A stretch of DNA of 62,116 nt, taken from positions 1 through 62,116 of IMG/VR virus record IMGVR_UViG_3300021420_000004. One strand, 5' to 3'. This document shows, piece by piece, positions 6,133 through 20,579 of the stretch (positions within the stretch are counted from its first letter, which is position 1; every line of letters begins with the position of its first letter). A program made the position numbers and the translations under genes. This DNA is from a virus (lineage: Duplodnaviria > Caudoviricetes). The notes below the pieces were generated by a model. That model was not told the origin of the DNA, searched no databases, and was given only the letters and a program-made list of their open reading frames with translations.

Positions 6133-6252
6133 CTCCCACCTCCGAGTTTTACGTTGCCTGCGAGAATGACCAATATTCCAAACAGGAACAGCGCGATATC
6201 TACTAGGTTCATCGTTTCCCTTTCTTGGCTCGGAGACAGAAAAGAAGAGTCT

Positions 6253-6441: not shown

Positions 6442-6468
6442 TTTTTGTCTCCTCGACCGCACTCAGGA

Positions 6469-6657: not shown

Positions 6658-6819
6658 GGCTGCTCCTTGTGCGTAGACACCGCACTCAATTTATCCACAA
6701 TTTCCCATAACTGAAACGCGATGGTAACTAGCAAAACCGGAATAGTGACGCACAACATAAACGACTCAAGTGAATTCATTTTCCCTCCGTCTTTGCGAGA
6801 TTAGTCTGGCTCATTGGAA

Positions 6820-7188
6820 TTATCCTTCTGACGCTCGATCCCGCTGCGGTCCGCAGGCGTCGAAAAGCGGCTTAAGTTTCTCGCCGTAGTGCTTGTAACT
6901 CGGCTGCTGTGGCCGCATCTTGCGAACTCTGGCGGCGAACAACTCCGTGGCATAAATCGTTCCAACCGTATCATCCGCAGCTTTCGCGTCTCGATAGGAT
7001 GCTTCCAGAACCTCAATGTTCTCTGGTGTGATCGGCTCACAATCCGCCGTAGCCCACCAAAAGCAATCGCTGCAATTCGCTAAGAATGTAATCGGGGCGT
7101 AGTTTCCGTCCATGCGCCACCAGAGATTGGAGTTGTCGCCGAAATCAAATACTTTCAACACGCGAAGAATGAACTCTTCTTGGCTCAT
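6820..7188 (-). CDS. hypothetical phage protein
   Basis: MSQEEFILRVL...CSDCFWWATADCEPITPEN...RKMRPQ; globular-looking composition. Confidence 0.65.
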   Translation of the reverse strand: MSQEEFILRVLKVFDFGDNSNLWWRMDGNYAPITFLANCSDCFWWATADCEPITPENIEVLEASYRDAKAADDTVGTIYATELFAARVRKMRPQQPSYKHYGEKLKPLFDACGPQRDRASEG

Positions 7189-7354
7189 TTGGGCTTCTCC
7201 GTCTCCTTGGCCAGCCGCGCCCTGCATGTGCATCCTCCAAGGCCGTGTACTAATAGGCATCCCCAATCATGCTTCACCAGTTCCCAAAAGAGTTGCCAAA
7301 AGAAACTTGATCGGTGGTCGTCGAATATGACTGGTGGCGGCATCCTAAGATTTC

Positions 7355-8173
7355 TCACTTTCCCTCCCCTGGCTTGGCTGTAGGACGCAATTCCCTCTCT
7401 GCCGCATCAAGAGCCAACGTCTGCTCCAGCAGTTCGGCCAACTCAGCGATGTGCTTGAAAGTTATATCCTTGGCGGGTGATCCGATGCACAGGTATCCCT
7501 TGTTGCACAGTCGTTGAATTTTACGCGCAATAGAGACGGGCGATTCCTCGCGCCCTCCAACTCCCGCCCGGCCGCCACCGTAAAACTCTTCTCGTTCTTC
7601 TGCTATTTCCAGTGCTGCCGCCGTGCGTGGTTCCGATGCGCCCGACTCGATTGGTCCGCCATGTTCTGAGCAAGCCCACGTCTTCCGCATAGGGACTCCG
7701 CAGACGGTACAACTTGGTGCTGGTGGCCCCTCCTGGCTGGGGTGTCCAGCGTATCGACTCTCCGATTTGTAGGCGGCTAATCGCTCACCCCAAGGCTTAT
7801 CCATGAAACCTGGTGTTCGCCATAACTGCTCAACTGCACCCATGAATGCTTCCTCGCTTGGCGCGGCTGTCGCCGGAGCGGAGGCGGAATGCCAATCATT
7901 ATTACAGTAGAAGTACTCACCCCACTGATAGCCAACTTGTAACTTGGTCGCCTTGTCATTACTTGCGCATCCGGGGCATCGTTCTCCCTGCGCTTCCATC
8001 TCCGCATCAATCTCGAATGTTTCGCCGTCTTCGAGCGGGTAGAACAACCTGCGCGCCTTATCAAGAGCCTCGTTCTCACAACTGGCCGTAACTCGTGCGC
8101 CTTCCGCCATACGCTTACCATCACGAAATCGTGAAACTCTGTACTCTTGGGGCGCTGCTTTGTCTTCGCTCAT
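7355..8173 (-). CDS. hypothetical mosaic protein with CxxC modules
   Basis: 272-aa ORF with CPGC and CTVC motifs and low-complexity linkers. Confidence 0.6.
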   Translation of the reverse strand: MSEDKAAPQEYRVSRFRDGKRMAEGARVTASCENEALDKARRLFYPLEDGETFEIDAEMEAQGERCPGCASNDKATKLQVGYQWGEYFYCNNDWHSASAPATAAPSEEAFMGAVEQLWRTPGFMDKPWGERLAAYKSESRYAGHPSQEGPPAPSCTVCGVPMRKTWACSEHGGPIESGASEPRTAAALEIAEEREEFYGGGRAGVGGREESPVSIARKIQRLCNKGYLCIGSPAKDITFKHIAELAELLEQTLALDAAERELRPTAKPGEGK

Positions 8174-8174
8174 C

Positions 8175-8456
8175 TCAAATCTCTCCGCCTTCCATGATTG
8201 AAAATCCCTTGACTAGCCTACAACCAATCCCGTATTGCGACTGTTCGTAAGCATCTCGTTGCGGATTCTGCAGCAAGCTGAATCGGCGTCCACTCTTTTC
8301 CAGCGTATGATGGGCTAACCCGGTATCGCGTGATCCGCAGAATGGACAATCCTCGAATACCAGAGTGAGCGGACCGTATTGACTTTCCGACGCATACACG
8401 TGATGACAAGATCGGCAATAGTTCATCGGCGTCTCTCGTCCCGTGTCTCCGCTCAT
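8175..8456 (-). CDS. zinc-ribbon protein
   Basis: CRSC...CPFCGS; GGAGG SD; ATGA coupling. Confidence 0.6.
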   Translation of the reverse strand: MSGDTGRETPMNYCRSCHHVYASESQYGPLTLVFEDCPFCGSRDTGLAHHTLEKSGRRFSLLQNPQRDAYEQSQYGIGCRLVKGFSIMEGGEI

Positions 8457-8707
8457 CGAGTTTCCTCCGGTTCTGTAGCCTTCCAGCGCTCTGCCGAAAG
8501 TTTGTACGAATGGATATGCGCTTGCCTGATTGTCACCTTGGGGTGCGTATAATGGTCCTTTTGGGCTGCACTCCAAGCTACTTCGAGTTCTGCTGCGTGC
8601 ATCGAATCGTAATAATTTCCCGTAGGCTCCCCAAGGCATTCAGTCCAATACACAACGGAAGATTCAGTAAATTCGCGCATCCATTGCTTGCTCTCAGTCG
8701 CCATCAT
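8453..8707 (-). CDS. hypothetical protein
   Basis: GGAGG SD before MMATESKQW. Confidence 0.55.
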   Translation of the reverse strand: MMATESKQWMREFTESSVVYWTECLGEPTGNYYDSMHAAELEVAWSAAQKDHYTHPKVTIRQAHIHSYKLSAERWKATEPEETR

Positions 8708-8815
8708 TTCGCCTCCGCTCAGATGTCCAAGTGACCTACGCCCTCGCAGTATTCGCAGGGCCAGCCTTCCCATTCCCTGCCGCTGCCGCTGCCGTGACAC
8801 TTAGGGCACTCCACA

Positions 8816-8844
8816 GCTTTGTCCGCTTCTATGATCCGCCGACC
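8816..8844. repeat. 29-bp direct repeat, copy 1
   Basis: GCTTTGTCCGCTTCTATGATCCGCCGACC; one mismatch to 9306-9334. Confidence 0.85.
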
Positions 8845-9026
8845 GAATTCTCAAAAATGGTCTTTACCGCAAGCGGGACAATCAAATCCCCATTCGTGGT
8901 CTTTAGCAGCCTTGCCTCTCGTCTGCCTGTCGGCCCCTCTGTGTCCTGCACTCTTAACTTCAGAGCAGTCATCCGAAGTCGGTTGTTTTCGCTCCGGTTC
9001 GCCGTTGCCGATCCCCGTCCGATTTG

Positions 9027-9302
9027 TCATACTCGTTCCTCAAGTTCGCGCCGAGATTTAAGAATGCAATCCTCACAGGTGTAGCAGCTTCCGAATCGCC
9101 CTTCGACTTTGGCACGCTCCATGACCATGCGAGTCTTTGCCGGAAGTGTCTGTGGACCTTTATGAATCACACTCAAACACTTATGCGAGAAGCGGGTAAC
9201 TACCCACGCAAACGAGCGACATTCGATCTCAACGTCTTCCGTGCCGACTCCATACAGGTAGTCCAGCGCATAGTGCTCCGAATCCGTGAGTGATTCGCTC
9301 AT
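9027..9302 (-). CDS. hypothetical Cys/His-containing protein
   Basis: AGAGGA SD within the repeat; HKC...CYTCEDC. Confidence 0.6.
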   Translation of the reverse strand: MSESLTDSEHYALDYLYGVGTEDVEIECRSFAWVVTRFSHKCLSVIHKGPQTLPAKTRMVMERAKVEGRFGSCYTCEDCILKSRRELEERV

Positions 9303-9305
9303 TTG

Positions 9306-9334
9306 GCTTTGTCCTCTTCTATGATCCGCCGACC
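9306..9334. repeat. 29-bp direct repeat, copy 2
   Basis: GCTTTGTCCTCTTCTATGATCCGCCGACC. Confidence 0.85.
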
Positions 9335-9351
9335 TTACCCTCCCGCCACCG

Positions 9352-10506
9352 TCACGGATGCTTCGCCGTGTACACGAACACCGCTCCCTGCCCGCTATCC
9401 GTCCCTGGCGCTCCCAGAAGCACCTTCCCGTCCTGCACCGCCACGCTTGCCCCAGCGTTCGTCTGCGGAGGCTTCGGCACCAAGCGGAGATCCGGCGTGC
9501 CCGATGCCCACCCTCCCGCTGGCTCATAACACACGAACGCCGATCCCTGCTGCACCTGCCATTGATTCACCGGCCCGGAGTCGCCGAGGATGATCGTTGT
9601 GGAGTCGATAGCCAGGGATGTGATCCCCCGGAAGTAGATATAATGCGGGATGGTCAAGGTCGCCGAGGGAATCGAGGTGTCCTGCCAGCCGGTCGAAGGC
9701 TCGATGAAGATCGGCGCGGAGCCATTGAGCAGGCCGGAGCCCGCGGCGGCGATGGTTCCCGCGTACATCGCCAAGGGACCCATGAGCGAGCCAGAGCAGC
9801 CCTCGGAGCTTCGGCTCCCGGCGGATAGTTCCGCCGTCTGGGTCATCGACTGCCATCCTCCGAGGGACTCCTGGTAGACGTAGATCGCCCCGCATCCCTC
9901 ATTCGCCAGGGGAGCGGAGATGGCTACCTTGACGCCAAAGACGGCCAGCGCGTAGCCGAATTCATAATCGGACTGCTGGGGATTATCCGATGGCGTCAGT
10001 TCCGCGCTGGGGGAGATTGACGAAGGCCATCCTCCACCCGGCTGCACGTAGAGATCCGCGACCCCGCCGGATTGCTGCGAGGCCATGACGACGGTTGAGC
10101 CGTTGACCGCTATCGACGGCAGCACTCCGGTCCAATCACTCGACGGCAAAAGCTGGGCCGTCTCGGTCGCATCCGCCCATCCACCTACGCCTTCGACGAA
10201 CACGAATCCTCCAGTCGAGGAAACGCCGACGATAGTAGTCCCCTTGTTCGCCGCCGCGACCTGCTGGATAGCTGAGCCATCCGAGGTCGTAAGAATCGCC
10301 AGCAGCGAAGGAGTCGCCCAAGTTGGCGCGGGCGCGAAGAGGTAAATCCCGCCATTGGAAAGGACCGCCGCCACCTGCCCGCTCAGCGCGACGGATTGTC
10401 CCGCTCGCTCCGAGCCGTTGATTGAGATTTCGCCGTTGAAGAATTGGCCGACCGCCAGCGACGCCAGGGACATCCATACGAGGATCAGCAATGGGATACG
10501 TTTCAT
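9352..10506 (-). CDS. secreted FG-GAP repeat beta-propeller protein
   Basis: Signal peptide ...ASLAVG|Q; repeats FGYALAV..AISAP..GAIYVY and AGASVAV..LLGAPG..GAVFVY; GGAGG SD. Confidence 0.85.
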   Translation of the reverse strand: MKRIPLLILVWMSLASLAVGQFFNGEISINGSERAGQSVALSGQVAAVLSNGGIYLFAPAPTWATPSLLAILTTSDGSAIQQVAAANKGTTIVGVSSTGGFVFVEGVGGWADATETAQLLPSSDWTGVLPSIAVNGSTVVMASQQSGGVADLYVQPGGGWPSSISPSAELTPSDNPQQSDYEFGYALAVFGVKVAISAPLANEGCGAIYVYQESLGGWQSMTQTAELSAGSRSSEGCSGSLMGPLAMYAGTIAAAGSGLLNGSAPIFIEPSTGWQDTSIPSATLTIPHYIYFRGITSLAIDSTTIILGDSGPVNQWQVQQGSAFVCYEPAGGWASGTPDLRLVPKPPQTNAGASVAVQDGKVLLGAPGTDSGQGAVFVYTAKHP

Positions 10507-10515
10507 ACTTCCCTC

Positions 10516-10680
10516 CTACTTAAAGTTGACAAGCTCAATCAGGTCCTTACATGCGAGAATAATCTCGCAGGCGCGGCGCTCGGGAGTCTTGCGATGTACG
10601 TCACCTTTGATGGAGGGATAAGCGTCCCCTAGATAATAGGAGACACGTCCCAGCAAACTATAAGCTTCCCAAGGCGTCAC
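10516..10680 (-). CDS. small hypothetical protein (54 aa)
   Basis: GTGA coupling to the Cas4-like stop; fills the gap. Confidence 0.4.
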   Translation of the reverse strand: MTPWEAYSLLGRVSYYLGDAYPSIKGDVHRKTPERRACEIILACKDLIELVNFK

Positions 10681-12278
10681 GATTTTTCTCCAGTTGATAG
10701 TGCAGCGGCGAGTCGTTCCGCTTCGTGATTACAGGTCCGGGCGACAAAGCGCCCCGTCGCCATCGGATCGCGCCGCACGTCTTCGCCACCATAACACACT
10801 TTCACGAAGGCGCATTCAGTGGGGTAGGAGCAAGCTTTCCGCGTTTTTCTGAACTTACGATTCAGCAAACTACGCCGCTCTCCGTCATCGACTGCGGATT
10901 CTACCAGAGCCACGTTTTCCGCGATCTCCGTCTCTTGCTCCTCTATTTCCTCCATAAAATCTCGAAGATCGTCATCGTTGCGATACACGGTAATCGGTGG
11001 AATAAAAACCGCGTCCAAGGGATGCTGACTCGTGTATCCAAGCGCCTGCGCGGAGGACTTCCATCCCAGAGGTCGCGGCTCCATGCCCACGGTCGAGTCG
11101 AACGCGGACATCGCCTCTTGGGAATCATCCAGCCGGTCGATCCATCGCTTCACGTCGTCCACCGGCTCTGGCTTCCAATGGCCGTAGTAGAGATTCGTCG
11201 CGCCTCCATCTTCCTTGATGTAGTCGTAGGACCAGCATTCGTCGCCAAGGTTGAAGGCAGATCCCTTCGCCGCTGTGCCTCGCGCCACATAACGACGGAT
11301 CAGGTGAGACTTCTGCGAGCGAACCTCGAAGCCGAACCGCGCTGACAACTCTTTATCCTTCCAGCGCTCCCCCTTGAGCATGTATTCGTAGCGGATGCCA
11401 AGGATGCGGGGCGGGGCGGGGAGTCCATGAAGGTAAACAGCTATACGGGGATCACACTCTAACCCATTACCATGATGAATGTCCGTCCACCAGTTCTGTA
11501 ATCGCCGCTCCACCTCCACTCCCTCGCTCAATCCCTGCATATCATGCTGCGCGTCCAGCTCCTTCCGGCGATCCCAGCTCGCGGCGGTCTTGAACGACAT
11601 GAGATACAGACTGTTATCCGAACGGGATCGCAGCAGTGCATCAGGACGGGAGCAGAATACAATCGCCGCGCCGTCGCGCCGGTCATCCTCGTAATACTTA
11701 TCGGGATCGACATGCGCCAACTCCCAAGTCCCCTCCCGCTCCACCTCCAGCACCTCGAACTCCTCCAGCAACGGTCGCAGCCGCCGTCTGGCATACGCCC
11801 GCACCAGCCCCTCAACCAGCGCGGACTGCTCCTTCCACAGATACTCGTCGAACTGGGATTGCCCGTTCGCTTGCGTGTCGTACAGCGCCTTCAACGTGGG
11901 ATCGTCGATCTCGACTCCCAGCTCCGAGGCCGTCGCCGTCATCTGCTGCTGAAGGTCGGTCGGCGCGGTCATCGCCGCCTGCTCGTTGGGATCGACGGCG
12001 AGGGCGTTGCGGTATTGCGCGAGGTCGGCTATCGCCAACTCCACCGCCGTATCTTCAATCGACGGCAGCGAGACGTTTATATCGTCGATGTTCGACGTGC
12101 TATAAGCGACCAGTAGCGTCTCCAATCCTTTGTGAACCGCCCCACCAACCGCGAGCGGCAACGGCTTCCTCGCTGGCGTCAATCCCACGCCCGACTGGTG
12201 GTATTCCAGCCAGCGGAGGCGATTGCAGCGCTGGAAGCTCTCGATGCGACTTCTATCGGTGAATACGGCCCGCGTCAT
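10677..12278 (-). CDS. Cas4-like PD-(D/E)XK exonuclease-family protein
   Basis: SRIESFQRC..LAVGGAVHKGLE..LEVERE..SRPDALL..MSFKT; C-terminal CSYPTECAFVKVC. Confidence 0.8.
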   Translation of the reverse strand: MTRAVFTDRSRIESFQRCNRLRWLEYHQSGVGLTPARKPLPLAVGGAVHKGLETLLVAYSTSNIDDINVSLPSIEDTAVELAIADLAQYRNALAVDPNEQAAMTAPTDLQQQMTATASELGVEIDDPTLKALYDTQANGQSQFDEYLWKEQSALVEGLVRAYARRRLRPLLEEFEVLEVEREGTWELAHVDPDKYYEDDRRDGAAIVFCSRPDALLRSRSDNSLYLMSFKTAASWDRRKELDAQHDMQGLSEGVEVERRLQNWWTDIHHGNGLECDPRIAVYLHGLPAPPRILGIRYEYMLKGERWKDKELSARFGFEVRSQKSHLIRRYVARGTAAKGSAFNLGDECWSYDYIKEDGGATNLYYGHWKPEPVDDVKRWIDRLDDSQEAMSAFDSTVGMEPRPLGWKSSAQALGYTSQHPLDAVFIPPITVYRNDDDLRDFMEEIEEQETEIAENVALVESAVDDGERRSLLNRKFRKTRKACSYPTECAFVKVCYGGEDVRRDPMATGRFVARTCNHEAERLAAALSTGEKS

Positions 12279-12568
12279 TTCCCCACCCGATCCACGACCA
12301 CCTCGCACTGCACAATCTGCGCCGCAATCCCCTGTGACAACTTGCCAGGACCGTCCAGCCGCACGAACGTGCGCCCCTCGTCCTCAAGGTTGTATGATCC
12401 CCGACTCACCGAATACAATTCGAATTTATCGGGGGCCGTGGACGTAATCTGCCATACCTCAAAGTACCCAGTCGTGGTAGAGTCCTCACACACAATCCCC
12501 ACGCGCCGCAACACGTCGCGGCCCTTAGGATGCAACTCAACGTATGTGCCCGCCTTGATTTCTGTCAT
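12275..12568 (-). CDS. hypothetical protein
   Basis: Coupled on both sides; GGAGG SD. Confidence 0.65.
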   Translation of the reverse strand: MTEIKAGTYVELHPKGRDVLRRVGIVCEDSTTTGYFEVWQITSTAPDKFELYSVSRGSYNLEDEGRTFVRLDGPGKLSQGIAAQIVQCEVVVDRVGK

Positions 12569-12738
12569 CGTCCCGCCTCCTTTTGCTCAACCTTCTCGAT
12601 CCCCCACCGTACCAGCGTCCGAATCATACTCGCCAAGGTCCGACCATCCTCGACCGCCATCCTCTCGACTCGATCCAGCATCGCCGGACTCATGCGGAAT
12701 GAAACCAACTCGGTGAACCTGTCTACTTTTGCCCTCAT
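12565..12738 (-). CDS. ribbon-helix-helix (Arc/CopG-like) regulator
   Basis: LVSFRMSPAMLDRVERMAVEDGRTLASMIRTLV. Confidence 0.8.
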   Translation of the reverse strand: MRAKVDRFTELVSFRMSPAMLDRVERMAVEDGRTLASMIRTLVRWGIEKVEQKEAGR

Positions 12739-12746
12739 GCGAGGAC

Positions 12747-12774
12747 ATATTAGCACGTCTGAATACGATGTCAA
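12747..12774 (-). promoter_or_regulatory. sigma70-type promoter, near-leaderless transcript
   Basis: TTGACA-16-TAATAT with extended TG; ATG 8 nt after the -10. Confidence 0.65.
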
Positions 12775-12924
12775 GTGTTATTTTCGCTCACCTGTGGAAA
12801 TACTTTATAACATTCACCATCCGCTACAGTTACGAAGACACAAATTTACAATATTTTCACTATTCTCTTGACTCCGAGGGGTGATAAGATGTAGTCAACA
12901 GAAGGTTGCCTGAGCAACGAAATC

Positions 12925-12996
12925 CCTGCGTGAGCAGGCCGGTTTACATGGGAGTGTCCGCCGGTCTGCTCAGCGTAGGAGAAAACTGGACACTCC
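12925..12996 (+). ncRNA. candidate structured 5' leader (hairpin plus pseudoknot)
   Basis: Stem 12925-12942/12961-12979; loop GGAGTGTCC is complementary to GGACACTCC at 12988-12996. Confidence 0.5.
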
Positions 12997-12998
12997 GA

Positions 12999-14279
12999 AT
13001 GGCTACTACGCCGTCGTGCATCTCCGCTAACGATCCAGCCATCACCAATCAGATCCTAAACGAGAATCCCAACGGCGATTCCTACGAATCCCAACGCAAG
13101 CGCCAACGCGATCCTTACTTTTTTGAACGCGACGCCTCTGGCGCGTGGCGAATCGTATCCTGGCTCGAACCTCGCGTCCATCGTGAGCAGCGTGAAGTCG
13201 CGCTCCAACTCCTCCGCGATCACGGCTGGATCGCCCGCGCTGACGCTATCGTGTCCTGTGGCCGCGCATTTATTCCCTTCAAGGGCTGCCTTGAAAAAGG
13301 TCCTGACGGGCGCTGGCACGAACTCCATGCCGTCGTGGGATTCTGCAATACCGCTTTCTGTTCTTATTGCTCTGATCCTAAGCGCAGATTAGATCATTTT
13401 CTAAACCTTGACCACAATCGCGTCATCCATTCTATCTACGCGATAACAAACACGCTCTCAGCTCGTGGGCTCCCCACATCAGTCAAGCGAATCGTCGTAG
13501 CCTCCAGAACCACCAAGACCACCAAAGGGCTAGGTATTCGTCAGCGTCAAGAAATCCTACAGAAGCAAATCGACCGATGGCGCGAGCGTGTTTGTCGCCA
13601 GTATGGAATCGGCACCGAGGAGCACGGGCTGCTTATCGCCGACGGCCTTCGTAAGGGGGGGGCCAGCGCTAAGATATTCTACGTAGGCCCCGACATTTCT
13701 GATTCCTTCCTGCGTGACACTTGGAAGGAAATCGTCGGAATTGGCTGGGAGTTCGATATAGACAGTGCCACCATTTGCGCCCACGAAATAGCGACCGACG
13801 AAATCGGCTGTCGCGGAATGGTCGAAGCAGAACTTCAGCGTCTCATGGAGGCCAATCACCAATTCGTCGCAATACGCAAGCCAAAGGAGCTGGCGGAACT
13901 ACATGTCATGTTCCGTAATTATCGAATGGTGCGCCGGATAGGATCGTTTTATGGCCAGAAGATCGTAAGCGATTCGGAGCAGATTACCGATATCGAGTCA
14001 TCCGAGATGACTGAGGCCGAAATCAACGCTGCCATAAACGCTATGCCCGTCGTTCCATCGGAGCTGGGATTGTGTATTACCTGTCAGGCTCCCCTAGTTG
14101 CGCTTATCAATCATAAGCCTAGCAATTACCAAGACTTAGACTCTAAGGCGATGCAGGTTAAGTATTACAAACCGAAGGAGCGTCAGGAACATAAACATAG
14201 TACCGTACATAAGTGTCCAGCCGACAGCAGATTGAGAGGAGATGTGAAGGCACTTATGAGCCAATCGCCGCCGTCCTGA
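12999..14279 (+). CDS. degenerate HUH rolling-circle Rep-like zinc-binding protein
   Basis: RADAIVSCG..C..H..FCNTAFCSYC; L..TW...G..FDI; YRMVRRIGSFYG; CITC; HUH and catalytic YxxK not present. Confidence 0.6.
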   Translation: MATTPSCISANDPAITNQILNENPNGDSYESQRKRQRDPYFFERDASGAWRIVSWLEPRVHREQREVALQLLRDHGWIARADAIVSCGRAFIPFKGCLEKGPDGRWHELHAVVGFCNTAFCSYCSDPKRRLDHFLNLDHNRVIHSIYAITNTLSARGLPTSVKRIVVASRTTKTTKGLGIRQRQEILQKQIDRWRERVCRQYGIGTEEHGLLIADGLRKGGASAKIFYVGPDISDSFLRDTWKEIVGIGWEFDIDSATICAHEIATDEIGCRGMVEAELQRLMEANHQFVAIRKPKELAELHVMFRNYRMVRRIGSFYGQKIVSDSEQITDIESSEMTEAEINAAINAMPVVPSELGLCITCQAPLVALINHKPSNYQDLDSKAMQVKYYKPKERQEHKHSTVHKCPADSRLRGDVKALMSQSPPS

Positions 14280-14341
14280 CCGCTCCAGCGATCCCCTGAC
14301 CCCGATTTCCGACCGCTCTACACGATGATGAAGGCGGAGCC

Positions 14342-14902
14342 CTATCCCCATTGTTCGGCCATAGCCTCTGCGATCCCCGGCAAGGTACGGCTACGTTCCT
14401 TCCAGCGATCAGGGCCCGGCGAAGCATGATGTACTCGTGGCGTCCGGCCTTCTACTATATTCGTAGGAACCAGTTTGGGTAGTCCTTTGAGCCACAAGCA
14501 GGTCGCCTTTGTCTCGCCATGTCCGAATTGCCACGGCTGAATGATCTGGTCGGGTTTCCGCCATTTTGTGCTTAGCACACCAATGGGATTTTCGATGGCC
14601 CATTTTTTGATAAGCGCGTTGTTTGCCAGCCAGCACTTGACAAATCGCAGCGCCTCTTTCTGCGGCTCAACTCTATTTTTGAACCACCTAGCACCGCTCA
14701 CAGCCAAGTAAGTGCAAGGCGGATGAGCGATCATCAAATCCCAGCAGCTCCACATGAACCAGTCTTCCTTAAGGTCCAACTGCATATGGAATTTACTGCC
14801 GTCTTCTGCTGGCAAAAGATCACACGACCAAGCATCATGGCCTCGCCCGCGAAATGCTTCCCGAACGATGCCAGAGAACTCACACGCCACCAGAACTCTC
14901 AT
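14342..14902 (-). CDS. phage DNA cytosine methyltransferase-like protein
   Basis: MRVLVACEFSG, AWSCDLLP, IAHPPCT, IENP, QPWQFGH, RSRTLPGIA.AMAEQWG. Confidence 0.85.
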   Translation of the reverse strand: MRVLVACEFSGIVREAFRGRGHDAWSCDLLPAEDGSKFHMQLDLKEDWFMWSCWDLMIAHPPCTYLAVSGARWFKNRVEPQKEALRFVKCWLANNALIKKWAIENPIGVLSTKWRKPDQIIQPWQFGHGETKATCLWLKGLPKLVPTNIVEGRTPRVHHASPGPDRWKERSRTLPGIAEAMAEQWG

Positions 14903-14917
14903 TTTTTGTCCTCCGCC

Positions 14918-15091
14918 CTATCCCTTCCAGATCCACCACAGCCACCGCACGACATGTCCCAAGGCCCACCACGCGCCTAGACATACCACGATGTAGAATC
15001 CCCAAGCCACGCGGATCAGCTTGCGGTTCTGCTGACGCCATAGCCGTATCTGCCGGTCCTCCGTCGCATAATCCTGCCATATTAACGACAT
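14918..15091 (-). CDS. small membrane protein
   Basis: GGAGG SD; Trp-rich hydrophobic C-terminal half. Confidence 0.5.
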   Translation of the reverse strand: MSLIWQDYATEDRQIRLWRQQNRKLIRVAWGFYIVVCLGAWWALGHVVRWLWWIWKG

Positions 15092-15328
15092 GTTATTGTC
15101 CTCCCCTTCCCTTTCTACGCTTCCGCGACTTCTCCCCGCGAAAGGATGGTTAAACTGGCACATGGCGAAAGAATACGACGCGCTGCCCGCCCTTGACGCG
15201 GCAGTGAGGGTTGGTCATATCGCCGTCGCGTGCTTTCCAGCCGTCTACCTCGAACGGTTTCAAGGCGGCGGAAATCTTCGCCCTATCCTCGGGCCAATGT
15301 GGACGGGCATTGCGGCCCGTTTCGACCT

Positions 15329-15568
15329 TTAGTAACTCGCCCAGCGTTGCTGTAGCTCTTGGCTTGGCTGCTCATACTCCCATCCATTCTGGTGACAGAC
15401 AATTTGCTCCCATACGTCACCGGACGCATCAAAACGGTCAATCCCCATGCGAGTGAACCCGGCATTGATGATGCGTTGCGTGGGTGCGTCAAAGTTCATC
15501 GCAAGGCCGTTCTTAATAGCCTTGATTTCGTCGCTGTGATCTTGGATAATCTGTTCGATTCGGCTCAT
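15329..15568 (-). CDS. hypothetical protein
   Basis: Purine-rich SD before MSRIEQII. Confidence 0.55.
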   Translation of the reverse strand: MSRIEQIIQDHSDEIKAIKNGLAMNFDAPTQRIINAGFTRMGIDRFDASGDVWEQIVCHQNGWEYEQPSQELQQRWASY

Positions 15569-15593
15569 TGTTCCCTTCTCCCTTTCTGTATCG

Positions 15594-15788
15594 CTAACCA
15601 CGATTGAACTCCGTCTCACCAGTTACAACTGGCGTCAGCTCGTCCCCATCCCATTCCGTCACCGCCGTCAGCCCTTGCCTAATGACAATCCTAAGCGCTT
15701 GGGCGAACGTCCACATCTGACGGTCCGCGATAGCTTGGATCGCATCGCGTTCGCTCTGCTCTAATCGCGTTTGTACTTGGATAAGCAT
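15594..15788 (-). CDS. ribbon-helix-helix-like regulator
   Basis: IQVQTRLEQSERDAIQAIADRQMWTFAQALRIVIRQGL. Confidence 0.7.
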   Translation of the reverse strand: MLIQVQTRLEQSERDAIQAIADRQMWTFAQALRIVIRQGLTAVTEWDGDELTPVVTGETEFNRG

Positions 15789-15794
15789 GATGAG

Positions 15795-15823
15795 AGTGTA
15801 TACAACGTATACGATCCTGTCAA
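15795..15823 (-). promoter_or_regulatory. sigma70-type promoter, leaderless transcript
   Basis: TTGACA-17-TACACT with ATG 6 nt after the -10; GTATAC..GTATAC palindromes overlap the spacer and -10. Confidence 0.75.
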
Positions 15824-15839
15824 GGATTATCTTTTATTC

Positions 15840-16345
15840 TGATCCACAGCTTATACACAGCGTTTGGCATCCCGATCCTGACCCGGTAACTAATAGCTCA
15901 AGATAGTTAATAGCCGTCCAGACCGCGCCAGCTAATGCATACTACATCCGTAGTAGGTCTCAGGGTGAGAATTGGTGAGGGATGTGAGCGGGTGAGTATG
16001 TACATCCCAACTCACGACTGGTAATACTACCCTCACCTGTCTAATCCTTATTCTCACCTGTCCGACGCTAACCTCACCTGTCCTTTGTCCCTCGACGACG
16101 CCGATTAGGACGCGGGATTCGCAGCTCGCCGACGCTGGACCCCCGACCGTCGTCCATCGCCCGCCATCGCGCATCCTTATTATATGTCCGATTGCCAGGA
16201 CGATGGCCGGGCAGATGCGAGTTGTCCGGATGGGAGGGCCTCCGCCGACGCTGACATGTCTCCATCCTCCCCACCCCCACACAAAAATAATAAAAATTAT
16301 AACTATCCTATAATCAACATGATCCCTAATTCCCACAGGTGAGGG
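15840..16345. other. non-coding strand-switch region; candidate origin or packaging site
   Basis: TGATCCACA and TTATACACA boxes; GTGAG x4; CTCACCTGTC x3 at 16032/16053/16073; AT-rich 16281-16320. Confidence 0.55.
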
Positions 16346-16347
16346 GA

Positions 16348-16376
16348 TTGACATGGCGGATGAGGGGTGATATGGT
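16348..16376 (+). promoter_or_regulatory. strong sigma70-type promoter of the rightward arm
   Basis: TTGACA-17-TATGGT with extended TG; GGAGGT SD follows. Confidence 0.8.
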
Positions 16377-16394
16377 CGCGGCTGGAGGTTAGAT

Positions 16395-16769
16395 ATGAAT
16401 CGGATACGTCAACTGGAGCAGCAGATCGCGCAGCTTAACACGGAGTTGAAGTGGGAGTACGATAACAACGCAAAGGGACAGACCATCCCATTGAGGGAGC
16501 AGGCGTTTACCAACGAGAGTCCGGGTACCGTGGGTGGTATGGCTGGACAGTTGTCGCAGCGAGACCCTATCGACGACGTATTTACCTTCCACGACAATCC
16601 CGATGCGGCTCCTCATTATATCGAGATCCGCGAAGCCGCTAAGACCTTCGCTCGCGTGATCGACCGGCATGCGCCGTGGTCAGAGGATAAGCGGTCCGCG
16701 CTCGGATGCGTTCGAGCGGCAGTAATGTGGGCTAACGCGGCGGTGGCGCTAAACGGACGAGGACTATGA
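16395..16769 (+). CDS. Acb2/Tad1-like helical hairpin protein (putative anti-defence nucleotide sponge)
   Basis: FTFH...HYIEIREAAKTFARVI...PWSEDKRSAL..VRAAVMWANAAVA. Confidence 0.7.
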   Translation: MNRIRQLEQQIAQLNTELKWEYDNNAKGQTIPLREQAFTNESPGTVGGMAGQLSQRDPIDDVFTFHDNPDAAPHYIEIREAAKTFARVIDRHAPWSEDKRSALGCVRAAVMWANAAVALNGRGL

Positions 16770-17032
16770 CCGACTCCTCCTTCCCCCACGACGCCCTAGG
16801 CAACTCGATCCGTAAGGACGACCTCGTACAGGTCAAGCTCCAGTCGCCGGACCTCATCTTCCAAGTCACCGACGTGCAACCCGCCGGGACGCTCATAGGA
16901 CCGGATCAGCAACCACTAGCGCTCCAAGGGACACTGACCGTTGCGGTGACCATCCCGATCACCTTCGCGCCGGGGGTCCTGTTGGGGAATATCTTGGTGC
17001 TGAAGAAGCCAGAGCAGGAGAGGACGAACTAG
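16766..17032 (+). CDS. hypothetical protein
   Basis: GAGGA SD; ATGA coupling. Confidence 0.7.
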   Translation: MTDSSFPHDALGNSIRKDDLVQVKLQSPDLIFQVTDVQPAGTLIGPDQQPLALQGTLTVAVTIPITFAPGVLLGNILVLKKPEQERTN

Positions 17033-17244
17033 TGGCTAAGACATATCTTAAACGCACACTTCGATTGGTGGCTGACAATGGTTGTAAGGTGTGCGAGGGT
17101 ACAGGAATCCGTGCGGAAAATCATTACTCTGTGGGATGCCGGAAGCTAGAGGTCGCGTTTGATATTTGCCCTTGTGTTAAGGTAAAACCCATTGGGTTAT
17201 ACCTACCCAAGAAGACACCTGATGTGATCGTGCCCGTTGACTAA
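17032..17244 (+). CDS. small zinc-finger protein
   Basis: CKVCEGTG...CPC. Confidence 0.6.
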   Translation: MAKTYLKRTLRLVADNGCKVCEGTGIRAENHYSVGCRKLEVAFDICPCVKVKPIGLYLPKKTPDVIVPVD

Positions 17245-17830
17245 TATGACCCCCTCCCCCGATGCCGTCGATCAGTCGGAGGTGATCCTCTCGGACGTAG
17301 TGAAGTGTCCGAAGTGTGGGGCGGATTGCCGTGATCTCGGTAATGGATATGTTACCTGCGATACTTGTTGTGAGCGTATCCGCAAGGAGCTAAACTCGTC
17401 CACCACGCCCGCCGATCCGAAGTCCTGCTCCTGCCTCCGTTGCGGCCACCACTGGACGCCCAAGGATCAATCCCGCCCCCCACGATGCTGCTCCCTGTGT
17501 CGGTCGGCGTACTGGGATTCCCCCTCAGCAGGCACGATGACGGATGAGCAACGCTCGGCGGCGCAAGCGCGGGTGAGAGAGAAGGTGGCGCGGCGGTCGA
17601 CGCTGGCGCGACGGAAGACGGCGGAGAGGAAGCTGGTGCGGTGGGCGGGGGAGGTAGGGCCGGATGCGCTGGAGATCGTGGCGGCGTTGTATCCAATGCC
17701 AGGTGATCCATCTCCTAAGTTCGAGACCGAGGAGGATCTAAGACATGCGTTGTTTAATCATGGGAAGGCTACCGTTATGATGCCTCCTGCGGGGATGCCC
17801 CCTCCGCCGAAGTTCGAGGACGAGCGATGA
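17237..17830 (+). CDS. multi-zinc-finger protein
   Basis: CPKC, CDTC, CLRCGHHW..CSLCRSAYW; C-terminal GMPPPP. Confidence 0.65.
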   Translation: MTNMTPSPDAVDQSEVILSDVVKCPKCGADCRDLGNGYVTCDTCCERIRKELNSSTTPADPKSCSCLRCGHHWTPKDQSRPPRCCSLCRSAYWDSPSAGTMTDEQRSAAQARVREKVARRSTLARRKTAERKLVRWAGEVGPDALEIVAALYPMPGDPSPKFETEEDLRHALFNHGKATVMMPPAGMPPPPKFEDER

Positions 17831-18207
17831 TCGGTAACGCCTACCACGACGCCTTCGTAGGACCGCTAGTATGGGGAGTTAGGAGAGAGAGAGAGAGAGT
17901 AATGGATGCTAATAGCCCACGGTCGAGAATCGTCTTTCCCGAGCGCACCCGGACCAAGATCCACGCCCGCTGGCTGGAATGGTCAGCGGCCTTGAAGATC
18001 GAGCAGCAGGCGCGACCCTCCCATCTGTGCTTCGACGAGACTTGGCACCAGGGATGGCTTATCGACCTTCTTCGCCGGGGAGTGGAGATGCGCGTGGTGC
18101 GGCGGCTGGAACTGGACGACCCGCGCAAGCCGCTGACGGAGTTGCATCGGCGGGTGACTAAGTATTTAATGAGGAAGGATAATCGACATGTTAGTAACCA
18201 GCAATGA
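17827..18207 (+). CDS. hypothetical protein containing a (GA)8 tract
   Basis: Coupled ORF; dinucleotide run at 17883-17899. Confidence 0.55.
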   Translation: MIGNAYHDAFVGPLVWGVRRERERVMDANSPRSRIVFPERTRTKIHARWLEWSAALKIEQQARPSHLCFDETWHQGWLIDLLRRGVEMRVVRRLELDDPRKPLTELHRRVTKYLMRKDNRHVSNQQ

Positions 18208-18511
18208 GAATCGCTTGCTATGGGCGTTAAGAGATATGGTAGCGCAGCATTGCAGTTGCGTGGACCCACAGGGATTGCGGAACAAGGTGCTCGACACGGA
18301 ACTGGTATTCGATTCTGGTTACATTCGATGCAACCGGACAGCAATGGAAATCCTCGTCGAGCATGGCCATATGGAGTTGGTGAGCGCGGACGATGGTGGA
18401 GGCCGCTGGTACCGCGCCAAGATGATATCTCCTGGCAATACTCCGAACGCTTTTGGAAGAGATATTACGGATATAAAGGAGACCGCACAATGCCAGCACG
18501 CCAAGAGCTAG
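18188..18511 (+). CDS. hypothetical protein
   Basis: AAGGA SD; operon context. Confidence 0.55.
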   Translation: MLVTSNENRLLWALRDMVAQHCSCVDPQGLRNKVLDTELVFDSGYIRCNRTAMEILVEHGHMELVSADDGGGRWYRAKMISPGNTPNAFGRDITDIKETAQCQHAKS

Positions 18512-19131
18512 TAGCGAACCGTCCACTCCGAGGTGATGAGTTGGCGAAGATCATCCTCGCCGATGTCACCGACATCCTCGCCCGCGATTGCATGATGACT
18601 TCCCGCGTGGCCTACGGTCGCATCGCCTACGAGATCAAAGTCGTCCTGCACATGGACAACCCGGCGTTCAAGGAATCGGAGACGGTGATCCGCGCTAAGG
18701 CTCCGTCGGATAACATGGTCGAGGCGCGACCGGAGCTGGCGGCTATCGAGGGTGGGCCACCCTTGGCGAAGCCTTGGTCCTCCACTTGCGCCAACTGCGA
18801 CCGCCCTGAGTCCGAGCACGACGGCGACGAGAAGCTATGCCGCGTCAACGCTGGAGAACTCATCACCCGCTGGGAGCCCTCCACCAACTCCTACGTCTCC
18901 GCCACTCAGCGTGACCGCACCATCGACTCCCCCAACGTCGCCCGGATCGAACATGGACTCCCGATCACCGTCATCCGCCAAGGCCACGATACTGGCGGGA
19001 ACGCGATGTCGGTCGAGGAAGGCGTGCTCTATCCGCCCGAGACCGTACAGGATGTCTCGGTGCCGCCGAAGGATCACGATCTCACCCGGCAGGTGAAGCA
19101 GGCGTTCACGGATGGGAGCAATCTTCTGTGA
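18490..19131 (+). CDS. hypothetical protein
   Basis: AAGGAG SD before MPARQELV. Confidence 0.7.
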   Translation: MPARQELVANRPLRGDELAKIILADVTDILARDCMMTSRVAYGRIAYEIKVVLHMDNPAFKESETVIRAKAPSDNMVEARPELAAIEGGPPLAKPWSSTCANCDRPESEHDGDEKLCRVNAGELITRWEPSTNSYVSATQRDRTIDSPNVARIEHGLPITVIRQGHDTGGNAMSVEEGVLYPPETVQDVSVPPKDHDLTRQVKQAFTDGSNLL

Positions 19132-19340
19132 CCGTCGAGGAGATCAGGAAGTTATTGCCTGAGGCGGAAGTATTCGCGCTCTCTCCCGAATTCAATTACA
19201 TCATCACCTTCGATATGAACCTTGTGCAGCGAGAGACTATGAAGGCGGTTGGAGAGTCGTTATATAAACAAGGTATATGGGCCGCGCTGGTGGGAGTATG
19301 CGGTCCTGATGCGATCAACGTGTTCAGGGTGCCACAGTGA
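19128..19340 (+). CDS. hypothetical protein
   Basis: GTGA coupling. Confidence 0.6.
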   Translation: MTVEEIRKLLPEAEVFALSPEFNYIITFDMNLVQRETMKAVGESLYKQGIWAALVGVCGPDAINVFRVPQ

Positions 19341-19567
19341 TCTTGGCGTGGCAAGTCGCAAGGGGAGTCGCGTGGCTGAAGAAACTAGTCAGCGCGTCCG
19401 AGTCCATCGCGGGCTCTCTTGAGGAACTGGTCAAGATCGAACGCGAACGCACCCCCGCCCGTCGTACAATCAAGAAGGCGGAGATCACCGTGGCCGATCC
19501 TCAGGAATGGAACCAGTCGTGGCGCGAGGCGCATCCGCAGCTGGACGCGGAGGAAGGAGAGTTATGA
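19337..19567 (+). CDS. hypothetical protein
   Basis: GTGA coupling. Confidence 0.6.
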   Translation: MILAWQVARGVAWLKKLVSASESIAGSLEELVKIERERTPARRTIKKAEITVADPQEWNQSWREAHPQLDAEEGEL

Positions 19568-19824
19568 TCCGATTTATACTGATCGGAAATCAGATCGACG
19601 ATGACGATGAGCAGCCGGGGCACCACTTCGCATTCTTCAACACCGTCAACGACCTATTCATTACGCTCGACAACGAGCAGGTGTGGCAGACGTGGGAAGA
19701 GTTTGAACACTCGTGGCGAGAAGAATACGCGGAAGGAAACTACGACCTTCCTGTTGTGTGGCCGCTTGAGCGTTTCAAGGGACTATGCAGTCATTACGTC
19801 AGCGTCCGAAAGGTGGCGTCCTGA
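19564..19824 (+). CDS. hypothetical acidic/aromatic protein
   Basis: AAGGAG SD before MIRFILIG. Confidence 0.6.
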   Translation: MIRFILIGNQIDDDDEQPGHHFAFFNTVNDLFITLDNEQVWQTWEEFEHSWREEYAEGNYDLPVVWPLERFKGLCSHYVSVRKVAS

Positions 19825-20579
19825 TGCCCCACGTTCCTCCTCCCATCGGCGCTCACCCCTCCCGCCGCCTCATCACCGCGCAGGAGATCGCTGCCTACAA
19901 GGAACTCGGCGTGCGTCCTATCGACGTTCTCGAATGCGTCCGCATCACTCCGTTCCTGAACGACTTCGGCGGTCGCGCCCGATGCCTCGCCTACCTCCGC
20001 GCCTCCGACTCGCGCCTCGCCCGACGGTTCATCGAGTGCTACGATAACTTCAAGCTGTCCTATTTCGTTCGCTATCGCTTGCCGCTCGAAGCGTTCTGCA
20101 TCAAGGCCGGTATCAACCCGCTCGAACTCCTGAAGGAGATCGGCGCATCCGCGCGGGCGATCTACCAGATTCAGGCGTCGATGGCTGCGGCGGAAGCTCA
20201 CCCGGCCATCGTCGGGAAGTCCATCGAACTCGCCAAGGAAGGCGACGTGGATCACACGACCCTTCAGATGAAGCACATGGCGTTCCTCCCGCTGCCGAAA
20301 GGCTCCCAGGTCCAAGTGAACGTGAACGCCTCTGCCAACGCCGCGTCCTCCGCGCAATCCACTACCGTGGCCGCGCCCGCGCCAGAGAACACAATCCGTG
20401 GCCTCGTCAATCGCTTCAACCTCCCGGCGAAGACCCAAGCGATCCTCGCGGGAGAATCCGCCGGAGAGACGATCCCCGCGATCATGCCGGGGGATTCCCG
20501 GGAGCTGACAACCATTGACGCCGACGACTCCGAGGAGGACGACTCATTTACTGTTCAAGACATGTCGAGCGACGAATAG
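19824..20579 (+). CDS. putative terminase small subunit
   Basis: Immediately upstream of and overlapping TerL; helical core, QVQVNVN strand, acidic tail. Confidence 0.5.
   Translation: MPHVPPPIGAHPSRRLITAQEIAAYKELGVRPIDVLECVRITPFLNDFGGRARCLAYLRASDSRLARRFIECYDNFKLSYFVRYRLPLEAFCIKAGINPLELLKEIGASARAIYQIQASMAAAEAHPAIVGKSIELAKEGDVDHTTLQMKHMAFLPLPKGSQVQVNVNASANAASSAQSTTVAAPAPENTIRGLVNRFNLPAKTQAILAGESAGETIPAIMPGDSRELTTIDADDSEEDDSFTVQDMSSDE

Follow-up and report, generated by a model that had tools for sequence, protein, structure and literature searches.

A stable predicted hairpin and putative pseudoknot over the ribosome-binding region of a Rep-like gene in an uncultured soil phage

In the 62,116-nucleotide phage record analyzed here, which assembles as a circle and is referred to throughout as the window, a strong hairpin lies directly upstream of a distantly Rep-like gene, where it pairs the only strong Shine-Dalgarno (SD) motif of the gene and carries in its loop a 9-nt sequence complementary to the bases beside the start codon (Table 1). 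The explanation that we favor is a translational throttle or switch working in cis, in which the approximately 100-nt 5' leader of the Rep-like mRNA (12897/12903–12998) would act on translation through a putative SD-hiding pseudoknot, and we put this forward tentatively. If real, this self-contained leader element of about 100 nt would be a compact case of a replication-type gene controlled by RNA alone, in an uncultured soil phage of a kind whose translational control has hardly been studied. The leader structure is a well-formed prediction and not a discovery, and both SD-hiding hairpins and pseudoknots at ribosome-binding sites (RBS) are familiar devices.

Table 1. Positions of the leader elements and neighboring features in the window
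Feature	Position	Strand	Remarks
Ribbon-helix-helix (RHH) gene, Arc/CopG-type	12565..12738	-	Divergent from the Rep-like gene
Promoter-like TTGACA-16-TAATAT	12747..12774	-	10/12, TG before -10; belongs to the divergent RHH gene
Inverted repeat TTCTCTTGACT / AGTCAACAGAA	12863..12903		11-nt arms, 10/11 complementary; flanks the candidate + strand promoter
Promoter candidate TTGACT-16-TGTAGT	12868..12895	+	9/12, best on this strand; own motif scan
Extended -10 TGATAAGAT	12882-12890	+	Alternative promoter candidate; own motif scan
HP0, GTTGC-CTGA-GCAAC	12905-12918	+	5-bp hairpin at the leader's predicted 5' end; read from sequence and fold
S1	12925..12979	+	18-bp stem (19-21 bp with extensions), 18-nt loop, bulged G12973
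S2a, loop 9-mer GGAGTGTCC (GGAGUGUCC)	12951-12959	+	Complement of S2b
AGGAG, SD-like	12977-12981	+	17 nt upstream of ATG; paired at the base of S1, first three bases within S1
A-rich linker AGAAAACT (AGAAAACU)	12980-12987	+	L3 of the putative pseudoknot; 5/8 are A
S2b, GGACACTCC (GGACACUCC)	12988-12996	+	Complement of S2a; -11 to -3 from the start codon
Rep-like gene	12999..14279	+	426-aa Cys-rich protein with predicted HUH-nuclease-like fold; start from P0001/P0002 N-terminal alignment

The hairpin and the ribosome-binding region

An earlier, sequence-only reading had described an 18-bp stem with two G.U pairs and one bulge, preceded by the small hairpin HP0, and both were found as described. 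Positions 12925–12930 pair with 12974–12979 and 12931–12942 pair with 12961–12972, the two G.U pairs being G12928.U12976 and G12938.U12965. In the predicted fold S1 is lengthened by U12943.G12960, C12924-G12981 and U12923-A12982 and its loop can close on itself (ACAU/GUGU), and in the nested fold S1 and the inner helix together form one long duplex with little interruption (21 bp plus 4 bp). The minimum free energy of 12895–13010 was -47.4 kcal/mol (z = -3.95), a stability equaled by none of 200 shuffles, and the S1 window ranked first among the 12,412 sixty-nt windows taken from both strands of the 62-kb genome. When folded as RNA, S1 gave -39.4 kcal/mol on the + strand versus -26.8 kcal/mol on the - strand. 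Since the G.U pairs of the + strand become A.C on the - strand, this 12.6 kcal/mol difference points to selection acting on a + strand RNA.

The stem was also correctly stated to cover part of the AGGAG motif: the unpaired probability in the predicted ensemble was 0.00 for A12977–G12979 and 0.24 for G12981, and the nested fold hides the SD together with much of the AUG. The spacing of this SD is unusual because those of many other ORFs sit closer to their start codons; an SD-like tetramer was present within 16 nt in 38 of the 58 ORFs of a rough gene call favoring SD-bearing starts, and many clear starts in the genome have AAGGAG or GGAGG at 5–9 nt. A hairpin of 4 bp with a 3-nt loop (UGGA-CAC-UCCG) can form between SD and AUG. 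The start codon proposed earlier, ATG 12999, agrees with the N-termini of the homologues, residues 9–424 of P0001 aligning to query residues 11–422 and P0002 also being consistent. Four other potential start codons occur within 12897–12998 (TTG 12906, GTG 12930, ATG 12948 and GTG 12954), all in the frame of the main ORF with no stop following; these were rejected as alternative starts as none had a properly spaced SD and none fitted the homologue N-termini.

Promoters and neighboring genes

Every candidate + strand promoter is located at 12895 or further upstream, and the interval between S1 and the AUG is just 19 nt long. Because every promoter-like site is upstream, the S1 structure should be in the 5' UTR, and a transcription start downstream of the stem, which the sequence-only reading had named as fatal to its proposal, is not what the candidates indicate. 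Judging from the position of either of the best candidates, which a stricter promoter scan did not call, transcription of the Rep-like gene would start near 12897–12903, and the inverted repeat around this candidate promoter looks like an operator. On the - strand no promoter-like site above 8/12 was present in 12985–13250 (best 13180–13152), a score to be read with the reservation that host promoter rules may differ.

The Rep-like gene is the sole + strand gene among the long ORFs of a leftward early/replication block. The likely start of the divergent RHH gene is ATG 12738, 8 nt past the -10 hexamer of its promoter-like site, which is one of four perfect-TTGACA sites in 1–20000. The product matched a PHROG Arc-like repressor (E 4.1e-7), while Pfam RHH matches were weak and below cut-off. 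No tRNAs were found in the window, and a mobile element was rejected as no matching hairpin or terminal repeats surround the Rep-like gene. One sequencing run (X1) may be where the record comes from, and in a second run containing the phage (X2) the sequence was identical where covered, with no contig on 12762–12992. An RNA run (X3) yielded one 151-nt contig at 14048–14198, which leaves the leader uncovered and so has no bearing on its transcription, strand or start.

The loop-to-start complement and the putative pseudoknot

The perfect complementarity of the loop to bases ending 2 nt before ATG 12999–13001, with an A-rich linker between, was likewise confirmed (9/9). The S2 duplex, with an energy of -15.9 kcal/mol, can be extended by G12960.U12987. 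A complement of at least 9 bases between the S1 loop and the corresponding 41-nt stretch was seen in 0.12% of 17,736 genome windows, the true site being counted in, and in 0.165% of 20,000 shuffles; the local chance of a perfect 9-nt loop-to-RBS match is about 0.001–0.002 (0.0012–0.0017). The exact 9-mer occurs in the genome at these two places only, and when one mismatch was allowed there were 21 matches versus 16.5 expected genome-wide, which is no enrichment. Both GGAGTGTCC and GGACACTCC are partly self-complementary (GGA...TCC), and GC-rich 9-mers complementary at 8/9 positions are common nearby. Two further candidates, an 8/9 complement between 12973–81 and 13003–11 and short TGAGCA-type repeats, were within chance.

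In silico, S1 (12925–43/12960–79) and S2 (12951–59/12988–96) have the crossing topology of an H-type pseudoknot. Loop L1, with 7–8 nt over 9 bp, is an easy span. For L3 the 8 nt over 19 bp correspond to a straight line of 46 Å or 5.15 Å per P-P step, the comparison value for 8 nt over 11 bp being 3.2 Å per step; because 8 nt must bridge 19 bp, L3 would be nearly extended even before any detour around the backbones in its path, or the base of S1 would be open. The predicted energy of S1 with open loop was -34.0 kcal/mol, against -39.4 kcal/mol for the nested alternative. The usual pseudoknot penalty is about 9.6 kcal/mol, and with this value the estimated stability of the knot roughly equals that of the nested fold or somewhat exceeds it. 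The upper 13 bp of S1 alone gave -23.1 kcal/mol, and a knot that kept these pairs only would fall short of the nested fold by several kcal/mol.

We propose that during transcription HP0 would fold first, followed by the very stable S1, which would pair the AGGAG motif, already too far from the AUG at 17 nt. As the last 20 nt emerge, GGACACUCC could pair with the S1 loop to give an H-type pseudoknot with the A-rich linker running along S1. Both the SD and the bases adjacent to the AUG would then be hidden and the protein would be made rarely or on some trigger; the hairpin probably keeps the protein scarce. As the 8-nt linker barely spans the whole of S1, the knot may require that the lower 6 bp of S1 be open, and since these are the SD-pairing bases the knot would then couple the freeing of the SD to the trapping of the start region, as in a two-state switch. 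An elaboration of this, which we consider a long shot, is a two-state leader operating without antisense RNA or leader peptide, in which a long-stem pseudoknot couples opening of the SD bases to start-region capture and the state depends on the protein that the gene itself encodes; having an HUH fold but no longer the nuclease residues, this protein would serve as a regulator that binds the hairpin in its mRNA or, alternatively, in DNA.

The Rep-like protein and its relatives

HUH Rep proteins are defined by a His-hydrophobic-His motif and a catalytic Tyr. In a fold search against 48,161 chains the top two matches of the predicted protein were HUH nucleases, 3wrn (Z 9.2, 153 residues aligned, rmsd 3.6) and 2x3g (Z 8.7); the model has a mean pLDDT of 54.4, and such Z values are near background, best scores of 7–8 being common for unmatched models. 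Subsequent matches were AAV Rep, a REP-associated transposase, and circovirus and nanovirus Reps, and the matching region comprised residues about 137–315. An hhalign comparison of alignment A1 with an ORF of genome G529 that has Rep-type motifs gave a probability of 96.8%, and the language-model neighbors of the protein were named replication proteins. In the same comparison both the His-hydrophobic-His motif and the Tyr were missing at the aligned positions (HCHGIWLGP opposite (gap)KIFYVGP; ALKYTSK opposite RLMEANH), which makes nicking by this protein doubtful. No Pfam, PHROG or NCBIfam family was matched, PF01446 (Rep_1) had no match in six frames at E <= 10, and five family members had no Pfam match except stray zinc-ribbon hits. 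The earlier designation of the gene as Rep-like therefore holds in a distant sense, by the putative HUH-type fold and the hhalign match, but not by His/Tyr motifs or membership in a Rep family.

Relatives of the phage and of the gene family are very few. Four relatives of the Rep-like protein were found among 1.84 billion representatives and six by profile search, and there were no matches when the protein alone was used in a word-indexed search. About ten members of the gene family are known, with an HUH-like predicted fold and without HUH or Tyr motif. When viral_contigs was queried with the window protein, P0001, P0002, P0008, alignment A2 and the neighboring nuclease, the sole match (L002) was spurious, consisting of 32 residues matching around QEILQKQI in an unrelated ORF. 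Scanning of metagenome_contigs with A2 and P0001 revealed no relatives, and blastn against a phage collection gave no match. Three samples of 401 genomes each, from the class, order and phylum of genome G001, contained only G001 itself, a weak match in G529 and a marginal one in G063 (3 stops). One relative of the gene in a Terriglobales genome is the only taxonomic pointer.

The loop-to-RBS complement was missing in the two distant homologues with DNA. The leader of one (L003) carries a hairpin of 11 bp, placed upstream of a GGAG that is left free, and that of the other (L006) has GGGAGG followed after 5 nt by TTG. An Rfam search of 12000–14000 in E-value mode returned only a chance snoRNA match (E 3.2), and there were no matches in gathering mode over the whole window.

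Alternative explanations

It is possible, though we think it rather unlikely, that the hairpin alone is functional, S1 being either a + strand RNA element hiding the SD or a site through which an early phage mRNA is processed by RNase III or stabilized, with the 9-nt complement coincidental or irrelevant. The stability of S1, its strand bias and the SD pairing all fit this explanation equally well, and with the nested fold alone the SD and a large part of the AUG are already concealed. RNase III cuts long duplexes of about the size class of the 21 bp plus 4 bp predicted here. The strained geometry of L3, the partial self-complementarity of the S2 arms and the abundance of nearby 8/9-complementary 9-mers point in the same direction. 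Against it stand the low local chance of the perfect 9-mer, its location at exactly -11 to -3, and the A-rich linker; A-rich loops typically lie in the minor groove of a stem.

A site acting at the DNA level is a real rival to the RNA reading, and we regard it as unlikely but not negligible. The hairpin and the inverted 9-mers would then be double- or single-stranded DNA sites, either an origin or nick-type hairpin or operators, for the HUH-like protein or the RHH repressor. The core of the protein resembles HUH nucleases whose substrates are DNA hairpins (3wrn and 2x3g at the top), its homology to an ORF with Rep-type motifs and its language-model neighbors agree with this, the record assembles as a circle, and an RHH gene adjoins, as CopG adjoins the origin of pMV158. 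As single-stranded DNA the S1 hairpin is significant, with -18.1 kcal/mol and z = -4.41. The - strand DNA hairpin is weaker (-13.7 kcal/mol), however, and the two defects of the stem are each a G.T on the same strand, a preference for which a duplex site or cruciform gives no reason. The space between promoter and start is filled exactly, with S2b adjoining the AUG, and the 9-mer is not repeated elsewhere. Neither the poor protein model (mean pLDDT 54), with Z scores close to the 7–8 common for unmatched models, nor the two His and the Tyr missing at the aligned positions favor a DNA hairpin nuclease. The cis-regulatory RNA proposal of the sequence-only reading is upheld in part, as regards a strong strand-specific RNA-type hairpin, a probable 5' UTR, a hidden SD and a loop complementary to the bases beside the start codon; the pseudoknot and any switching stay putative.

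We consider it improbable that the structure is a - strand terminator or insulator halting leftward transcripts, which would come from a promoter at 15823 and run through a methyltransferase gene and antisense to the Rep-like gene, before they reach the RHH promoter. No terminator-like site is present between the convergent gene ends (14280–14341), and the only - strand sites listed in 15795–12747 are 12938–12925 and 12918–12905. Yet these are 5-bp sub-hairpins with weak T-rich tails (GATTTCGTTG, CTTCTGTTGA), of a type found 10 times in 1–20000 versus 14.6 expected; S1 on the - strand is interrupted by two A.C mismatches, at a cost of 12.6 kcal/mol in stability (-26.8); and a terminator is expected right after a gene and not 1.3 kb later.

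A neutral intergenic palindrome without function is slightly more improbable still; a phage and gene family with almost no relatives to show conservation would accommodate it, but not the first rank among 12,412 windows, defects consisting of G.U pairs only and a position precisely over the SD and beside the start codon. Least probable of all is the target of a cis-encoded antisense RNA, in which case the hairpin of the countertranscript and S2b would be competitors for pairing with the S1 loop: any - strand RNA here would by construction carry GGACACUCC in its loop, and in plasmids of the IncI1 and IncB/O groups an antisense RNA blocks the pseudoknot that Rep translation requires (PMC8053102), but 12985–13250 has no - strand promoter-like site above 8/12, and there is no leader-peptide ORF and no Rfam match.

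Comparison with known systems

The cis-acting leader that we favor can be compared with several described systems. With HUH Reps such as parvovirus NS1, AAV Rep, SIRV1 ORF119, circovirus Rep and the CopG-RepB module of pMV158, in which copG and repB are laid out together, the phage locus shares a tentative fold match, a hairpin directly upstream and an adjacent RHH gene. Unlike these, the phage protein has neither His-hydrophobic-His nor Tyr at the aligned positions and belongs to no Pfam Rep family.

The sequence-only reading had drawn an analogy with IncI/IncB plasmid rep genes. In the I-complex (IncI1 ColIb-P9 repZ, IncB pMU720 repA, IncK, IncL/M) a short leader-peptide ORF is translationally coupled to a gene for a Rep of the RepA/RepZ family, and there is a cis-encoded antisense RNA. 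This antisense RNA prevents formation of a pseudoknot on which RepZ translation depends, according to PMC8053102. The phage leader is similar in that a loop complements bases by the RBS of a replication-type gene, but it has no separate leader-peptide ORF, no antisense promoter-like site above 8/12 and no Rfam match, its protein is unrelated and without Pfam family, the distal arm lies merely 8 nt past the stem, and the likely effect would be repression, not activation. As it differs in leader peptide and Rep family and apparently also in the antisense promoter, the leader falls outside the IncI/IncB system and the analogy does not hold.

The mRNA of timP, from the type I toxin-antitoxin system timPR, is described in PMC11228461 as having a hidden RBS and mutually exclusive conformations, the active one containing a pseudoknot essential for initiation. 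The RBS of the phage leader is likewise predicted to be sequestered by a stable structure, whereas the timP knot joins distant stem-loops and is the target of a trans-acting sRNA, no sRNA being known for the phage leader.

Leader pseudoknots serve in self-control of translation in T4 gene 32 and at the E. coli rpsO operator, as summarized in PMC3014915, and the phage leader resembles these in placing a putative pseudoknot before a gene for what would be a nucleic-acid-binding protein. In gene 32 the knot is found 67 nt upstream, and from it the protein begins to bind cooperatively across an A+U-rich RBS; that the Rep-like protein binds its own leader would be pure speculation. PMC3014915 also describes split ribosome-binding sites for T4 genes 38 and 25, with the SD 22 and 27 nt from the AUG and a foldable intervening sequence. 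The phage SD is similarly too far from its start codon, at 17 nt, with foldable sequence between; in contrast to the T4 genes, the intervening hairpin has only 4 bp and a 3-nt loop, and the SD itself is buried in S1.

A stable hairpin ahead of the Rep-like start codon

The leader of the Rep-like gene contains a hairpin which is real and exceptional. The sequence-only reading had described a small upstream hairpin (HP0), an 18-bp stem (S1), a loop 9-mer exactly complementary to a start-proximal 9-mer (the pairing S2) and an AGGAG motif, and all four were found at the positions tabulated below. All were read directly from the sequence, and RNA folding recovered S1 and extended it to 21 pairs. 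The region 12895-13010 had an MFE of -47.4 kcal/mol (z = -3.95), and none of 200 shuffles folded equally well. In a genome scan of both strands S1 was the most stable of 12,412 sixty-nt windows (-39.4 kcal/mol versus -37.1 kcal/mol for the next, which lies within a 1920-aa ORF).

A complement of at least 9 nt to this loop within a 41-nt stretch occurred in 0.12% of 17,736 genome windows, the true site being counted, and in 0.165% of 20,000 shuffles. The loop-to-start pairing, although selected post hoc, is unlikely to have arisen by chance, even given that the genome has approximately 25 hairpins of similar strength. On its own, the 5' arm of S1 forms a small palindrome that resembles HP0 and shares with it a direct repeat (TGCCTGAGCA/TGCGTGAGCA, spaced 20 nt); two small hairpins could form in turn on the nascent RNA before S1 does.

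Features of the leader and its genome setting
Feature	Position	Strand	Remarks
Terminal direct repeat, 127 bp	1-127 and 61990-62116		Inside DNA polymerase gene
Leftward block (long ORFs)	~1-16,350	-	Family A DNA polymerase, Dda-like helicase, Sak4-like protein, PD-(D/E)XK-type exonuclease, Arc/CopG-type RHH protein, DNA methyltransferase
Promoter-like sites, perfect TTGACA	15795-15823, 12747-12774, 5550-5578	-	Heads of gene blocks
Promoter-like site, perfect TTGACA	16348-16376	+	Head of gene block
RHH gene	12565-12738	-	Divergent from Rep-like gene
Inverted repeat, 11 nt	12863-73 / 12893-903		TTCTCTTGACT/AGTCAACAGAA
Best promoter candidate	12868-95	+	TTGACT-16-TGTAGT, 9/12 matches, 225-bp divergent region
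Other best candidate, extended -10	12882-90	+	TGATAAGAT
HP0	12905-12918	+	GTTGC-CTGA-GCAAC
S1	12925-42 with 12961-79	+	G12928.U12976, G12938.U12965, bulged G12973
Palindrome in S1 5' arm	12925-12938	+	CCUGC-GUGA-GCAGG
Loop 9-mer	12951-59	+	GGAGTGTCC
AGGAG	12977-81	+	Paired in nested ensemble
Start-proximal 9-mer	12988-96	+	GGACACTCC, then GA, then ATG 12999
Rep-like gene	12999-14279	+	
Gap between convergent gene ends	14280-14341		No terminator-like hairpin
Rightward genes	from ~16,395	+	Include large terminase, major head protein, tail fibre
Second most stable 60-nt fold	47861-47920	+	

Start codon and ribosome binding

The ATG previously proposed as the start agrees with the homologues P0001 and P0002, which align from their own residues 9-10 to query residues 11-12 and share with the query an N-terminal ...DP..T....NP.AD.Y motif; ATG 12999 is accordingly the start. 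No usable SD was found for the upstream in-frame TTG, GTG and ATG codons of the leader. The SDs of this phage are strong, with an SD-like tetramer no more than 16 nt from the start in 38 of 58 ORFs (in an approximate gene call biased towards starts with an SD), and many of the clear ones are AAGGAG or GGAGG placed 5-9 nt before the ATG. The sole such motif of the Rep-like gene is 17 nt from the ATG and has an unpaired probability of 0.00 at three of its five bases in the nested ensemble, where the AUG is also largely paired.

RNA or DNA

The two imperfect pairs in S1, G.U on the + strand, become A.C on the - strand, and the RNA fold energies were -39.4 and -26.8 kcal/mol respectively; selection on a + strand RNA would produce such an asymmetry. 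In the main rival explanation, the hairpin is a DNA site recognised by one of the two neighbouring proteins, HUH-like or RHH. The + strand hairpin was significant as ssDNA too (-18.1 kcal/mol, z = -4.41; - strand -13.7 kcal/mol), so a role as + strand ssDNA is possible. The most likely reading is that the hairpin works as + strand RNA and affects how the Rep-like gene is translated.

Feasibility of the pseudoknot

With its loop open S1 gave -34.0 kcal/mol, and the nested fold, which adds an inner ACAU/GUGU helix, -39.4 kcal/mol; the S2 duplex gave -15.9 kcal/mol with initiation included, and the upper 13 bp of S1 alone -23.1 kcal/mol. With a pseudoknot penalty taken as about 9.6 kcal/mol, full S1 plus S2 matched the nested fold or beat it by a few kcal/mol, and upper S1 plus S2 fell several kcal/mol short of it. 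By linker geometry computed from standard A-form parameters, the 8-nt linker over 19 bp has to cover 46 Å in a straight line, or 5.15 Å per step (8 nt over 11 bp would need 3.2 Å), so the knot could form only if the A-rich linker were almost fully extended or the lower 6 bp of S1 had opened. These lower pairs hold the SD, and a possible two-state switch is proposed on that basis. The pseudoknot is a reasonable, although unproven, addition to the hairpin.

Genome setting and transcription

The 62,116-bp record, the whole IMG/VR virus record, is a closed-circle assembly, as a 936-aa frame stays open through the terminal repeat. The repeat lies within the DNA polymerase gene and the frame is open over the junction, so the 'DTR' arises from assembly overlap in a genome that is circular or circularly permuted, and marks no physical end. 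Among the long ORFs of the leftward block, the Rep-like gene alone runs rightward, and because its convergent junction with the methyltransferase gene has no terminator-like hairpin, leftward transcripts may run antisense through it.

The four perfect-TTGACA sites suggest that early regions are transcribed by host sigma-70-type machinery. From either + strand candidate, transcription is predicted to start near 12897-12903, just ahead of HP0; the 19 nt between S1 and the ATG are too few for a promoter. The inverted repeat flanks both candidates and resembles an operator, which the RHH protein might bind. A TTGACA-16-TAATAT promoter-like site has its -10 hexamer 8 nt ahead of the likely ATG of the RHH gene (12738), which lacks an SD; the RHH mRNA would then have little or no leader.

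The encoded protein and its relatives

The Rep-like gene product fell into no family of Pfam, PHROG or NCBIfam and matched no PDB sequence, and its AlphaFold model was weak (mean pLDDT 54.4; residues 140-260 mostly 70-87). Exhaustive structural comparison placed the HUH nucleases MVM NS1 (Z 9.2, rmsd 3.6, 153 aligned) and SIRV1 ORF119 (Z 8.7, 115 aligned) at the top, followed by bocavirus NS1, AAV5 Rep, B19 NS1, a REP-associated transposase and circovirus and nanovirus Reps; Foldseek alone gave none at E <= 0.001. Protein-language neighbours were named replication proteins, some with Rep_1 in 12-60% of members.

Alignment of the family by hhalign with an ORF of G529, the genome of a weaker relative, gave a probability of 96.8% (E 3e-10, 286 columns). 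That ORF contains LTFTT, HCHGIWLGP and ALKYTSK, which we take to be the three rolling-circle Rep motifs. At the aligned places the family of the Rep-like gene has KIFYVGP (versus HCHGIWLGP) and RLMEANH (versus ALKYTSK), and thus lacks the His pair and the Tyr at the positions of the HCH and YxxK-type motifs. The family combines a core like that of HUH nucleases with a conserved Cys cluster (C87, C97, H107, C116, C121, C124, C359, C362), and may be a nuclease-dead Rep derivative; 'Rep-like' is fair for ancestry, given the HUH-like matches and the G529 alignment, and not for activity.

About ten members of the family are known, with four relatives among 1.84 billion representatives and six in the profile search. 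Upstream DNA was compared in P0003 (Terriglobales MAG, locus L003) and the G529 relative (locus L006, 1216-2283). L003 has a small upstream ORF, an 11-bp hairpin whose loop has no downstream complement, and a GGAG left free 10 nt ahead of the ATG; at L006, 5 nt separate GGGAGG from an in-frame TTG. The arrangement is absent at both, which weighs only lightly because both are below 30% protein identity and in other contexts. A second sequencing run with this phage was identical over the parts covered. The same-strand ORF preceding the Terriglobales homologue (L003 4732-4947, 71 aa) is predicted to be excisionase/AlpA-like, which would fit an integrated element better than a phage replication module.

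Comparison with known systems

The device type is well known; this instance is new and orphan. In I-complex plasmids antisense RNA blocks leader-peptide translation and also the pseudoknot on which RepZ translation depends (PMC8053102). The IncI/IncB likeness drawn earlier holds as a functional analogy only: the phage leader has no leader peptide and no antisense promoter-like site above 8/12, and the protein differs from the I-complex Rep. As described in PMC11228461, timP mRNA, with a sequestered RBS, mutually exclusive conformers and an active form with a pseudoknot, is a closer mechanistic parallel. PMC3014915 describes further close parallels: pseudoknots by which T4 gene 32 and rpsO are autoregulated, and a split RBS in T4 genes 38 and 25.
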